DNA of 25,899 bases from Acidobacteriota bacterium (GTDB lineage: Bacteria; Acidobacteriota; Polarisedimenticolia; J045), in assembly GCA_027001345.1 (NCBI GenBank), contig JALTMS010000108.1:1-25899 (forward strand), given 5' to 3'. Position numbers and translations under genes: made by a program. The notes beneath the pieces were generated by a model, which was not told the DNA's origin, did no database searches, and saw only the letters and a list, made by a program, of their open reading frames with translations. Shown piece by piece: positions 14,302 through 19,054 of the stretch (within the stretch, counting starts at the first letter, position 1; each line of letters begins with the position of its first letter).

Positions 14302-15185
14302 CAACTCTCCCGCCTCGAACCGCGCTCGATGTCCCGGTGGCGGACCTGGGTCCGATAGCCCGACTGGGCCAGATAGCGTGATGTGCGCTCGGCCAGGGCC
14401 ACCGACCGATGTCTGCCTCCGGTGCAGCCGAACGCGATGGTCAGGTAGCTTTTGCCTTCGAAGACATAACGCGGCATGACGAAGGCCAGCATCTCCTCGA
14501 GCTTGGCGCAAAACCCCGTGTAGCTGGGCTGGGACTCGAGGAAATCGACGACTTTCTCGTCCCGCCCGCTGAACTCGCGCAAGCCCGGCTGAAAATACGG
14601 GTTTTCGATGAAACGCACGTCGAAAACCAGATCCACGTCTCGTGGCAGCCCGTGCTTGAAACCGAAGGAGACCAGCCGCACCAGCAGGTCACCCGTCTCG
14701 GAATGATCGCTGAGAACCGACTTGATCTGTCGCCGCAAATCGTGCGGCGACAGCGAGTCGGTGGCAATCACCCTGTCGGCCAGATCCCGGAGCCCGGAGA
14801 GCAATTCGCTTTCTCTTCCAATGGCCTCAGCCACGCCCAGGGAATCCTGCAGGGCCACCGGATGTGGCCGGCGGGTTTCCGAGAACCGACGCACGAGCAC
14901 GTCGGGCGACGCCTCGAGGAAGAGCACCGTCACCCTCAGGTCGGTGCGCTCTCGCAGCTCTTCGACGATCGCCGGCAACGTATCGAGATGCCCGCGCTCT
15001 CGCGCATCGACGACGAAGGCTCCCTGGGGCTCGACTTCTTCTCCCCGGTCGAGCAGATCGACGAACGGCGCAATCAGCGGCACGGGCAAGTTGTCTACCG
15101 AAAAATAGCCCATGTCCTCGAGGCAGCGCAGAGCGAGAGTCTTACCCGACCCGGAAAGACCCGAGAGAACCACCAGCTTGATCAT
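14301..15185 (-). CDS. rapZ: RNase adapter / P-loop NTPase RapZ (YvcJ)
   Basis: SGLSGSGKT, VDNLP, RFSETRRPHP, SFGFKHG, DVRFIENP, GCTGGRHRSV, HRD. Confidence 0.95.
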   Translation of the reverse strand: MIKLVVLSGLSGSGKTLALRCLEDMGYFSVDNLPVPLIAPFVDLLDRGEEVEPQGAFVVDARERGHLDTLPAIVEELRERTDLRVTVLFLEASPDVLVRRFSETRRPHPVALQDSLGVAEAIGRESELLSGLRDLADRVIATDSLSPHDLRRQIKSVLSDHSETGDLLVRLVSFGFKHGLPRDVDLVFDVRFIENPYFQPGLREFSGRDEKVVDFLESQPSYTGFCAKLEEMLAFVMPRYVFEGKSYLTIAFGCTGGRHRSVALAERTSRYLAQSGYRTQVRHRDIERGSRRES

Positions 15186-16153
15186 CGGCTCTCCTCCTCG
15201 CCCGGTGGGCGTTCAGACAGGCGGCGAGCCAGCTCGGCCTGAATCTCAGCCGCGGCGTCGATGCCCCTGGCTCGCAGCAACTGCTGTCGGGCCGCGATTT
15301 CGAGGATCACCGCCAGGTTTCTCCCCGGTGCCACGGGAACTTCCCTCAACGGCACCCGGTGCCCGAGCACCTCCCACCACGCCTGTTCCTCGCCCAGCCG
15401 CTCGTAGGAGCGAGTCGCGTCGAAGCGCACGAGCCGAATGGCCTGCTCAACGGCCTTGATCTCCGCCACTGCCGTGATGCCGAACATCTCCCGTGCGTTG
15501 ATCAGACCCAGGCCCCGCACCTCGAGATAATAGCGGGAAAGCTCGGGCGACGCGCCGATCAACTCGTCTTCGATCAAACGTAACTCGACGGCATCGTCGG
15601 CTACCAACCGATGACCGCGTGTGACCAGTTCCAGAGCGCACTCGCTCTTGCCGATCCCTGACTCCCCGAGCAGCAGCACCCCCAGACCGAAGATGTCCAT
15701 CAGCACACCGTGGATCGTCTTCCGCGGTGCCAGGCGAACTGCCATGAAGTGGAACAGCGCCTCCATTACCTCCCCGGTGACCGCCGCCGTGCTCAGCAGC
15801 GGCACCCCTCCGGCCTCGGCGGCATCCACCAGAGTCGGCGGCGGAGCCAGACCCCGAACGAGCAGCAGCGCCGGGAAACTGCCATCACACAGACGCCCGA
15901 TGGCCGCCGCCGCACCGCGACTGCGCCGGTTGAGAAAACGCGCCTCGCTGCGTCCGAGCACCTGCAAGCGACCTTCGTGCAGGTATTCGAGACCTCCGGT
16001 CAGAGCCAGTCCCGGTTTCTGCAGCCGAGGACTGGCCAGGGCGCGGTCCAGCCCCCGGCTCCCCGCGAGGACCTCGAACGCGAAGCGCTGGGAGAGGGCA
16101 TCGACCATCTCCCGAACTGTCGGGGGATCCGGCTTGTACGGTGCTGGACTCAA
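15182..16153 (-). CDS. hprK: HPr kinase/phosphorylase
   Basis: QKPGLALTG, HGVLMD, GESGIGKSE, LVADD, LEVRGLG, PVAPGRNLA. Start uncertain: TTG 16153 has a GGAAG RBS, with an alternative at 16207. Confidence 0.93.
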   Translation of the reverse strand: MSPAPYKPDPPTVREMVDALSQRFAFEVLAGSRGLDRALASPRLQKPGLALTGGLEYLHEGRLQVLGRSEARFLNRRSRGAAAAIGRLCDGSFPALLLVRGLAPPPTLVDAAEAGGVPLLSTAAVTGEVMEALFHFMAVRLAPRKTIHGVLMDIFGLGVLLLGESGIGKSECALELVTRGHRLVADDAVELRLIEDELIGASPELSRYYLEVRGLGLINAREMFGITAVAEIKAVEQAIRLVRFDATRSYERLGEEQAWWEVLGHRVPLREVPVAPGRNLAVILEIAARQQLLRARGIDAAAEIQAELARRLSERPPGEEESR

Positions 16154-16257
16154 GGCAGGGCTTCCAGTGGGCACCGGCGATGAGCCGGTCTGACAAACCC
16201 CCGGCAAAAGTGGGAAAAGGGGGTTTTCGAGGATAGCTAAGCACTAATGGATCTGTT

Positions 16258-16287
16258 ATGTTAGCGACCCCGCCGACGAGGTGTCAA
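16258..16287 (-). promoter_or_regulatory. sigma70 promoter for the hprK-PTS operon
   Basis: TTGACA-N18-TAACAT on the minus strand. Confidence 0.6.
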
Positions 16288-16380
16288 GGTGCCCGCGGTG
16301 GTGCGGAGTTCGACAAGGGAGAAAGCAGCAGCAACGCTCGCGATCCCGTCGGCAAGCGGGGTCTGGAGAGGGCACAAACC

Positions 16381-17460
16381 ATGGCCAAGACCGTCGTTCA
16401 CGTAGTAGGCACCGGAACCATTGGAGAGCCCCTGATCGGGCTTCTGTGCGACTTCAAGGAAGATCTGGGACTCGACGAGGTCACGTTCCACAAGCGGACC
16501 CCGCTGTATACCGATCGTTCCAAGGTGCGCGCGCTGATCGAGCGCGGAGCGCGCTTCGTCAGCGACTCCAAGGCCTTCGACGGTTTCCGAGAACTCGGCC
16601 TCGAGCCGGAACTCGAGACCTACGAAGCGCTGGACAACGCCACGGTCGTCATCGACTGTACGCCGTCGGGCGTGGGCCAGCAGAACAAAAACGATTACTA
16701 CAGTCGCTTTCAGCACAACACCAAGGGTTTCCTGGCCCAGGGCAGCGAGGCGGGCTTCGGCAAGCCCTACGCGCGCCAGATCAACGACGAGGCACTGATT
16801 CCGGGAGAGGATCAGTTCATCCAGATCGTCTCCTGCAACACCCACAATCTCTCGGTTCTCGTCGATGCCGTCGCGCTGGCCGATGGCGGGCCCGACAACC
16901 TGATCGCCGGGCAGTTCGTCTGCATCCGGCGCGCCAACGACATCAGCCAGGACGGATCCTTCGTCCCCGCACCCGAGGTGGGCAAGCACAAGGATCCCCG
17001 ATTCGGCACGCACCATGCCCAGGATGCCTGGCGGCTGTTCAACACTCTCGGCTACGACCTCGAACTCCACTCGTCGGCGCTGAAGATCAACACTCAGTAC
17101 ATGCACACGATCTGGTTCACGATCACCGTCCGGAACAAGACCTCGGTGGACGACGTCATTGCCCGGATGGAGGCCAACGACCGCATCGCCCTGACCCACA
17201 AGAAGAGCGCGAATTCGGTGTTTTCTTTCGGTCGCGACCACGGACACTTCGGTCGAATCCTCAACCAGGCCGTGGTCCCGCGCCAGACTCTGGCCGTTCG
17301 AAAGGGCGATCGCGGCTACGAGGTCGTCGGCTTCTGTTTCACACCCCAGGACGGCAACAGCCTGCTGTCCTCGGTGGCGGCAGCCTGCTGGATGATCAAT
17401 CCCGAGGACTACAACGAACGGGTACAGTGCCTGGGCAAGTACTTCTTCGACGAGGTCTGA
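16381..17460 (+). CDS. Archaeal-type (class II) glyceraldehyde-3-phosphate dehydrogenase homologue
   Basis: Rossmann VVGTGTIG, VIDCTPSGVG, QGSE, catalytic VSCNTH, IRRAND, THHAQD, MH and QDG are collinear with archaeal GAPDH motifs (GYGTIG, DCTP, QGGE, VSCNTT, RRAAD, SHHGPD, MH, QE). Start at ATG 16381 after GGAGAGG. Confidence 0.75.
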   Translation: MAKTVVHVVGTGTIGEPLIGLLCDFKEDLGLDEVTFHKRTPLYTDRSKVRALIERGARFVSDSKAFDGFRELGLEPELETYEALDNATVVIDCTPSGVGQQNKNDYYSRFQHNTKGFLAQGSEAGFGKPYARQINDEALIPGEDQFIQIVSCNTHNLSVLVDAVALADGGPDNLIAGQFVCIRRANDISQDGSFVPAPEVGKHKDPRFGTHHAQDAWRLFNTLGYDLELHSSALKINTQYMHTIWFTITVRNKTSVDDVIARMEANDRIALTHKKSANSVFSFGRDHGHFGRILNQAVVPRQTLAVRKGDRGYEVVGFCFTPQDGNSLLSSVAAACWMINPEDYNERVQCLGKYFFDEV

Positions 17461-17499: not shown

Positions 17500-18783
17500 T
17501 CAGGCAACCTTGCGGAAGACGAGCGTGGCGTTGGTGCCGCCAAAGCCGAACGAGTTCGACAGCGCCGCCCCCACCTCTCGCTCTACCGGGCGTCCGGGAG
17601 CAAAGCACTCCCGAGGCAGAGCGATCGGGTCGTCACCCTCGGTCGAGGCGATCCGCGGATCGAGGTGGTCGAGGTTGATCGTTGGAGGACAGACCCCTCG
17701 ATCGACCGCCAGGCAGGAAAACACCGACTCGAGCCCCCCCGCCGCTCCGAGCAGGTGCCCGGTAGCCGACTTGGTCGAAGAAACCACGAGCTTGTCGGCA
17801 TGTTGGCCGAAGACCCGACGTACGGCCCTGGCCTCGATCACGTCCCCGGTGGGCGTCGATGTGCCGTGGGCGTTGACATAGCCGATCTCAGCCGGTGTCA
17901 GACCGGCATCGGCCAGCGCCGCCCGCATCACCCGCACCATCCCGTCGCCGTCGTCGGGAGGGGCAGACATGTGGAAAGCATCACCCGTCGCCCCGAAACC
18001 GGCGACCTCCGCGTAGATCCGGGCTCCCCGGCGCCGGGCGGAGTCCTCGGACTCGAGCAGAAGCAGCCCGCAGCCCTCGGCCATCACGAAGCCGTCGCGA
18101 TCGCGGTCAAAGGGCCGGGAGGCTCTCTCAGGCTCGTCGTTGCGCGTGCTCAGAGCCTTCATGGCGCAGAAGCCGCCGACGGAAAGGGGCGACACGGCGG
18201 CCTCGGTCCCACCGGCGAGAATCAGATCGGCATCGCCGTGCTGAATCATGCGCAACGCATCACCGAGCGCGTGGTTTCCCGTCGCGCAGGCGGTGACCGT
18301 CGCCGAATTCGGTCCCTTCAAGCCGAAGCGCATCGAAACCACGCCGCTGGCCATATTGATGATCATGCCGGGGATCAGGAACGGTGAGAGCCGGCGCGGT
18401 CCCCTCTCGAGGAGCAGGCTGTGCTGCTGCTCGACGAGGGGAATGCCGCCGATTCCCGACCCGATGATCACGCCGAAGCGCTCGCGGTCGATCCGCTCGA
18501 GATCGACCCCCGAGTCGTCGAGAGCCATCTGGGCACAGGCCACGGCGAAGTGAGCAAAGCGCGCCATGCGCTTGGCCTCGCGCGCCTCCATCCACTGCTC
18601 GACATCGAAACCCTTGACCTCCCCCGCGATGCGCGAGGCGAAGGACGAGGCATCGAAGTGGGTGATCGGGGCGATCCCCGAACGTCCCTCGAGCAGAGCC
18701 CTCCAGGAGGACTCTGCATCGAGGCCGAGCGGACTGAGTGCGGACAGCCCGGTAACGAAAACACGCCGGGATGGTGTGCTCAC
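17500..18783 (-). CDS. fabF: 3-oxoacyl-ACP synthase II
   Basis: Cys-His-His triad in TACATG, NAHGTST and GHLLGAAG; SNSFGFGG. GTG start at 18783. Confidence 0.96.
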   Translation of the reverse strand: MSTPSRRVFVTGLSALSPLGLDAESSWRALLEGRSGIAPITHFDASSFASRIAGEVKGFDVEQWMEAREAKRMARFAHFAVACAQMALDDSGVDLERIDRERFGVIIGSGIGGIPLVEQQHSLLLERGPRRLSPFLIPGMIINMASGVVSMRFGLKGPNSATVTACATGNHALGDALRMIQHGDADLILAGGTEAAVSPLSVGGFCAMKALSTRNDEPERASRPFDRDRDGFVMAEGCGLLLLESEDSARRRGARIYAEVAGFGATGDAFHMSAPPDDGDGMVRVMRAALADAGLTPAEIGYVNAHGTSTPTGDVIEARAVRRVFGQHADKLVVSSTKSATGHLLGAAGGLESVFSCLAVDRGVCPPTINLDHLDPRIASTEGDDPIALPRECFAPGRPVEREVGAALSNSFGFGGTNATLVFRKVA

Positions 18784-18802
18784 GCGTTCTCCCGAGTGCC
18801 GA

Positions 18803-19054
18803 TCAGTTGTCCGCTGCGTTGTCCGAGATGAACTTGATCGCATCTCCGACCGTACGAATCTTCTCGGCATCCTCGTCGGAGATCTCGATGCCGAATTCCT
18901 CCTCCAGGGCCATCACCAGCTCGACGACCTCGAGGGAATCGGCTCCCAGATCGTCGGTGAAGGACTTGTCATCCGTCACCGAAGCTGGATCGAGCTTGAA
19001 GCTCTTGGAGATGGTATCGACGACCTTTGCACGGATTTCTTCAGTGGTGACCAT
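18803..19054 (-). CDS. acpP: Acyl carrier protein
   Basis: [19 protein letters not shown] (phosphopantetheine Ser). Confidence 0.97.

Follow-up and report, generated by a model that had tools for sequence, protein, structure and literature searches.

The plus-strand gene at 16381..17460 of the window, i.e. the whole analysed stretch of 25,899 nucleotides, encodes a protein of 359 amino acids (P0001), which is probably a true phosphorylating GAPDH and a member of a distinct clade that is widespread among bacteria. The assignment draws on the ORF and its translation, on sub-cut-off matches to HMMs of type II GAPDH, on an archaeal GAPDH fold and on more than 7000 homologues, and the predicted activity is that of G3P oxidation according to G3P + NAD(P)+ + Pi <-> 1,3-bisphosphoglycerate + NAD(P)H.

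The gene, its relatives and the active site

The reading frame is open from 16258 to 17460 (+). The putative start at ATG 16381 is backed by the lengths of the homologues (354-360 aa) and by a Shine-Dalgarno-like GGAGAG (16365..16370, +), which was noticed on sequence inspection 10 nt ahead of the ATG. The translation contains all motifs quoted in the first-pass annotation, namely GTGTIGEP (residues 10-17), SCNTH (151-155), HFGRILNQ (289-296) and TPQDGNS (321-327), and their order is indeed that of type II and not of type I GAPDH. In the Rossmann glycine motif GTGTIG (residues 10-15; 16408..16425, +), all six positions (G10, T11, G12, T13, I14 and G15) are invariant in the family.

Among the NCBIfam models, only those of type II GAPDH matched P0001, with scores clearly under their curated equivalog cut-offs (NF003251, 90.4 vs 185 bits; TIGR01546, 69.9 vs 232.9 bits). 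No match to TIGR01534, Gp_dh_N (PF00044) or an Asd model was obtained from NCBIfam and Pfam at E<=1, and Pfam reported Gp_dh_C (PF02800) only below threshold (20.6 bits vs 24.4). The sequence matches in the PDB were four archaeal GAPDHs and nothing else. The AlphaFold model of P0001 reached a pLDDT of 84.9, and with this predicted structure the top six Foldseek hits were archaeal GAPDH chains (2yyy, 2czc, 1b7g and 1cf2) with TM scores of 0.74-0.78 at 18-20% identity, while the folds of type I GAPDH and E4P dehydrogenase ranked behind with TM about 0.60. Hence, the proposed archaeal-type (class II-like) homology holds, since HMMs and fold both place the nearest characterised relatives among the archaeal type II enzymes, and the GapA type I and Asd models, suggested for comparison, do not match.

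Compared to archaeal type II GAPDH (EC 1.2.1.59; 1CF2, 1B7G, 2CZC, 2YYY), the family is alike in fold, motif order, the catalytic Cys, the counterpart of His219 and the two phosphate sites, possibly also in the Lys of the NADP type, and probably both catalyse the same reaction. It differs by the low identity and by HMM scores of half the cut-off or less, by SCNTH instead of SCNTT, by a longer loop at residues 186-205, by a chain that exceeds the archaeal ones of known structure (334-343 aa) by ~20 residues, and by its occurrence in many bacterial phyla. Bacterial type I GAPDH (GapA/GapB) belongs to the same superfamily and would carry out the same reaction, but it is separated from the family by profile, by fold and by the His that activates the Cys. 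Asd and ArgC, which share the superfamily and its Cys-based, NADPH-linked acyl-phosphate chemistry, show no HMM similarity to the family, and both are encoded separately in the source genome.

For the GAPDH of M. fervidus (1CF2), it has been described that Cys140 acts with Ser139 and Thr142, that His219 (with Asn141) abstracts the proton, that Ser139, Asn141, Arg167, His193 and His194 form the phosphate site and that Arg167/Arg168 bind the phosphate of G3P, whereas the Cys of type I GAPDH is activated by a different His (PMC12041015). In the HMMER alignment these nine residues map to S151, C152, N153, T154, R183, R184, H211, H212 and H242 of P0001, and all nine are invariant both in the alignment of 21 family members and in six copies from genomes with 29-31% GC. 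The block S151-C152-N153-T154-H155 (16831..16845, +) aligns with Ser139-Cys140-Asn141-Thr142-Thr143 of 1cf2, Arg183-Arg184 (16927..16932, +) with the phosphate-site residues Arg167/Arg168, His211-His212 (17011..17016, +) with His193/His194 of the Pi site, and His242 (17104..17106, +), which lies within an invariant QYMH block aligned with LMH of 1cf2, with the proton-abstracting His219. The only change at the catalytic block is from Thr143 to the invariant His155. As had been noticed at first, the catalytic Cys is thus kept in a block that reads SCNTH and not SCNTT, but to speak of altered active-site motifs was overstated, because every listed catalytic and phosphate residue of the M. fervidus enzyme is invariant. 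The SCNTH block was found in 99 of the 99 extracted loci, 80 of which had been preselected by a pattern containing SCNTH, while 16 others had not been selected in this way.

In such an enzyme, Cys152 would be activated by His242 and would form first a thiohemiacetal and then a thioester; Arg183/Arg184 would grip the C3-phosphate, and Ser151, Asn153, Arg183, His211 and His212 would hold the attacking phosphate. The true family-specific features are His155, the ~20 extra residues and the poorly modelled loop of residues 186-205 (16936..16995, +; pLDDT <50 for 186-202), in which D187, I188, S189, Q190, P196, P198, V200, G201, H203 and D205 are invariant. His155, this loop and the C-terminal extension could shift the specificity. 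A Lys after beta-2 correlates with the use of NADP+ in GAPDHs (PMC12041015), and Lys38 of P0001 (16492..16494, +), which is invariant among the 21 aligned members and nearly so among the representatives, aligns with the corresponding Lys of 2yyy, though across a gap of two residues in the HMMER alignment. Its place at the end of beta-2 hints at an enzyme that accepts NADP(H) or prefers it.

Distribution of the family and of type I GAPDH

The word-indexed search gave 7,051 clusters at 90% identity among 8,000 candidates scored, with homologues in the thousands at E<1e-160. The top homologues came from MAGs of Acidobacteria and carry the NCBI name "hypothetical protein" or the automatic JGI label "GAPDH (NAD(P))". 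An exhaustive search of representatives at 50% identity yielded 761 matches at E<=1e-3 and 149 at E<=1e-30. Representatives with 28-35% identity also stay below the archaeal type II cut-offs, hence a wider type II-like superfamily exists, in which most members keep SCNTH, RR, HH/HQ and MH. A few distant members (P0165, P0173, P0174, P0249, P0265 and P0270) lack the catalytic Cys together with other active-site residues and retain a FGRDHG...GR block; these may be pseudoenzymes.

A search limited to a single genome per species matched at least 594 loci, and identities were 57-77% among the matches listed, which come from Acidobacteriota, Neomarinimicrobiota/Marinisomatota, Binatota, Thermodesulfobacteriota, Planctomycetota, Eisenbacteria, Krumholzibacteriota, Fibrobacterota, Bdellovibrionota and others; Desulfobacterota were also counted among the host phyla. 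The family is carried by 50 of the 201 sampled Acidobacteriota genomes (one of the 201, G024, is unpublished, and no claim hangs on it alone) and by 76 of 121 Marinisomatota. Between phyla the identity remains at 54-63%, even if the copy of the window (65% GC) is compared to those of genomes with 29% GC, which points to purifying selection on the family. The first-pass annotation considered a little-studied subfamily, which is borne out, and it had named membership in a widespread, already characterised bacterial family as a finding that would speak against it. Widespread the family certainly is, characterised it is not, as the literature search found no characterisation or assay of any member.

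Regarding the question whether the source genome also has gapA, three full type I GAPDH copies were found, two of them in tandem. Moreover, type I GAPDH scored above the cut-off in all of five carriers from several phyla, hence the family does not generally represent the sole GAPDH. The tandem type I pair of the source genome (G000:C333:23-1944), with one copy above and one below the curated cut-off, recurs in carriers from other phyla (same layout in G036, G201 and G204) and looks like a conserved paralogue pair. In an Eisenbacteria MAG (G329:C6:156586-158571) the type I genes are split over several frames with one TGA, which could result from assembly indels or from decay.

The situation is different in Marinisomatota with small genomes. 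Seven carriers of ~1 Mb, for which assembly completeness is not reported, gave no match to type I GAPDH at E<=1e-20. In five of them (G228, G238, G246, G274 and G282) pgk adjoins tpiA (418-448 and 218-241 bits), no Gp_dh_N domain was found in the genome beyond noise of 17-19 bits, and the single type II-like gene is the family copy, which scores 105-111 bits with the archaeal type II models. The copies of these five genomes and of G290, a sixth ~1 Mb genome without a type I match, are intact, 354 aa long and 54-56% identical to P0001. Such genomes, with 29% G+C, are truly small, since contig 1 of G274 alone spans 969,550 bp of ~1.0 Mb. PGK depends on a phosphorylating GAPDH for its substrate or product; with pgk-tpiA kept and type I absent, the GAPDH step in the five genomes therefore leaves no candidate other than the family protein, which would fill it there. 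A search for the same sole-GAPDH pattern in five other phyla showed type I in four of them; a Krumholzibacteriota MAG (G328), perhaps an incomplete one, has no type I GAPDH. In a larger Marinisomatota genome of 2.1 Mb, the family match (G258:C14:143960-145021) contains three in-frame TGA codons, for which pseudogenisation, sequencing errors and a recoding of TGA are all conceivable reasons.

Within Acidobacteriota, two patterns that are weaker and non-independent point in the same direction. All six genomes in which the best type I match is clearly below the cut-off (E 1e-86 to 1e-95; G081, G037, G053, G067, G080 and G128) are carriers, and in the family f36 seven carriers have two type I copies, whereas four non-carriers have three to four, including a high-scoring copy that is missing from the carriers. 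Such within-lineage patterns reflect few independent events. A compensation for type I across the whole phylum was rejected, because type I copies are more numerous in carriers than in the other genomes (1.88 vs 1.10), which speaks against a simple substitution. One genome (G178; 99% complete, 30 contigs) has neither a type I match nor the family, so that the GAPDH step must be done by something else or is missing.

Possible functions of the protein

For the source genome, we propose that P0001 would serve as an additional, stand-alone isoenzyme beside the three type I GAPDHs. It is probably NADP(H)-linked, as judged from Lys38, and most plausibly it has the role of an NADPH-linked anabolic isoenzyme. 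Several GAPDH isoenzymes in one genome are found in B. subtilis with GapA and GapB, a case which the source genome resembles. Against the reading as a GAPDH we counted the HMM score of half the cut-off, the failure of Pfam to recognise the protein, the three type I copies already present, the higher type I copy number of carriers across the phylum and the inactivity of a type II homologue in Pseudoclostridium thermosuccinogenes, which is discussed below.

Probably the chemistry is ordinary. We regard it as conceivable, though with considerable doubt, that the clade is an ancient, separate bacterial class II GAPDH lineage with special properties due to His155 and the loop 186-205, for example a breadth in cofactor or substrate (G3P plus E4P) or a resistance to oxidative inactivation. 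If this is true, it could explain why the gene is retained beside type I copies and instead of type I in reduced genomes, and class II GAPDH would be no archaeal hallmark.

Among the other functions, the most serious one is that of a phosphorylating dehydrogenase of the same fold that acts mainly on another phosphorylated aldehyde, such as erythrose-4-phosphate, in the genomes with type I GAPDH; we consider it rather unlikely. It fits with the score under the equivalog cut-off, with the coexistence with 2-3 type I GAPDHs in the source genome, and with the invariant His155 and loop 186-205, which are missing from the archaeal enzymes and would reshape the pocket. The automatic JGI label also includes "erythrose-4-phosphate dehydrogenase", and in a MAG labelled Bipolaricaulota the gene directly follows a probable pdxS and pdxT (L057:6222-8833; the assignment of pdxS relies on its position and on 59-66% identity to the homologous ORFs of seven Marinisomatota loci, without a Pfam scan). 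In these seven loci, ccm genes separate pdxS/pdxT from the gene, which follows on the same strand at a distance of about 5 kb. A link to pdxS/pdxT was dismissed as too weak, since direct adjacency occurs in L057 only. Furthermore, the PdxS/PdxT route to PLP needs no E4P oxidation, so that carriers of these genes would have no use for it, and conserved pathway neighbours are missing. The protein shares the two phosphate sites and every catalytic residue with the G3P-using enzymes, and the ~1 Mb genomes, which retain pgk-tpiA beside no further GAPDH homologue, argue for G3P/1,3-BPG and against the initial idea of a different aldehyde substrate.

Gene neighbourhood, descent and remaining alternatives

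The gene order in the window is ptsI-HPr-EIIA-rapZ-hprK, then the GAPDH-like gene on the plus strand, then fabF-acpP-fabG-fabD-fabH. The ORF map agrees with the earlier description of the only plus-strand gene in a minus-strand run, divergent from hprK. The hprK gene (15182..16207, -) was identified by a TIGR00679 match at 15224-16105 (312.7 bits) and by the Pfam annotation of orthologous loci. It has a common intergenic region of 173 bp with the GAPDH-like gene (16208..16380), within which a sigma-70-like site (minus strand, 16287-16258) points toward hprK; no Rfam element or riboswitch was found upstream of the gene in the window and in six other loci. The convergent neighbour fabF (17500..18870, -) was recognised from its ORF, from the ketoacyl-synt annotation in orthologous loci and from tblastn synteny. 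Its longest ORF (456 aa) overlaps acpP (18803-19054, -) by 68 nt and has an Arg/Ser-rich N-terminal extension of ~40 residues, which is missing in orthologues of 413-414 aa; probably the true start of fabF is internal.

This arrangement had been read as an insertion, possibly by inter-domain transfer, and as a hint of co-regulation with HPr/HprK. A recent archaeal transfer between the PTS and fab operons with a coupling to HprK carbon control would suit the divergent orientation and the common intergenic region, and the layout of hprK, GAPDH-like gene and (etfAB) fabF does recur in relatives at 66-69% identity and in every one of the 17 genomes sampled from the class. Nevertheless, we hold such an origin for very improbable. 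The quick maximum-likelihood tree consists of well-supported, lineage-specific bacterial clades on a short, unresolved backbone, and P0001 is nested in the clade of its own class (support 98*), beside sequences labelled Polarisedimenticolia. The G+C content of the gene is not deviant (0.63 vs 0.64-0.65 of its neighbours). The gene thus seems to be inherited vertically within its class, with no sign that it was inserted recently or came from another domain; at an earlier time the family may have been transferred between phyla, since the Acidobacteriota families are split over at least five separate clades of the same tree.

At 15 loci of other Acidobacteriota families the gene does not adjoin hprK, hprK occurs in 143 of the 201 Acidobacteriota genomes irrespective of the GAPDH-like gene, and all seven f36 carriers are without hprK. 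Being limited to the class, the adjacency is best seen as inherited block synteny, and a co-regulation with hprK, which finds no support in these data, is at best conceivable within this class. In other phyla the neighbourhoods are unrelated, with ccm and tilS-hpt-ftsH in Marinisomatota, tldD/pmbA and DUF192 in Binatia-like loci, and RNase E/G, NUDIX, TsaD, CcmH and pdxT in the remaining ones. No conserved operon was found across phyla and divergent subfamilies, i.e. the gene is stand-alone. A distant member of the 30-35% identity class overlaps an upstream Bac_transf sugar transferase gene by 4 nt (L104:704-2259), which hints at a different role of that subfamily, possibly in polysaccharide synthesis.

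It was stated that functional evidence for bacterial type II GAPDHs is lacking, and the protein CDQ83_07070 of P. thermosuccinogenes, annotated by PGAP as type II GAPDH, was inactive in extracts with NAD+ or NADP+, occurs alongside type I GAPDHs and, as reported, shows no conservation among its relatives (PMC6543838). By analogy to what was suggested for that protein, P0001 might be a catalytically silent or moonlighting protein, and the few distant superfamily members without the Cys as well as the dispensability of the gene within genus g48 could be taken in this sense; in this genus, the flanking genes are 27 bp apart in G103 vs about 1.28 kb in G036, where the interval holds the class-II-like GAPDH gene alone. 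The P. thermosuccinogenes protein resembles the family as a bacterial homologue of the archaeal enzyme beside type I GAPDHs, but it passes the NCBI type II model, whereas the family members are named hypothetical protein, hence it probably belongs to a different clade; moreover, the P0001 family is highly conserved. With catalytic and phosphate residues invariant across phyla and in reduced genomes of 29% GC, and with the protein as sole GAPDH candidate where pgk-tpiA persists, a silent protein appears hardly credible to us.

The least probable alternative, to which we give almost no weight, is the replacement of a missing acyl-phosphate reductase (ProA, Asd or ArgC): NADPH-dependent acyl-phosphate reduction would fit the superfamily and five carriers from three phyla gave no ProA match, but ProA replacement was ruled out by the chance-level overlap of the family (50) and ProA (29) in the 201 genomes (6 vs 7.2 expected if independent; 128 with neither), and that of Asd or ArgC by the presence of Asd in carriers and of ArgC in the source genome (306 bits). 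As ProA (TIGR00407) occurs in only 29 of the 201 Acidobacteriota genomes, most of them presumably make proline by another route.

Taken as a phosphorylating GAPDH, the protein fills a gap in annotation and biochemistry; it is not new chemistry or a new kind of system. The gene, present in bacterial genomes by the thousands, bears the NCBI name hypothetical protein and escapes Pfam, and reconstructions of some reduced Marinisomatota would for this reason show a false gap at the GAPDH step, which the recognition of the clade would close. Class II-type GAPDH would then be a widespread enzyme of Bacteria as well, in the form of a well-defined and easily assayed enzyme family.
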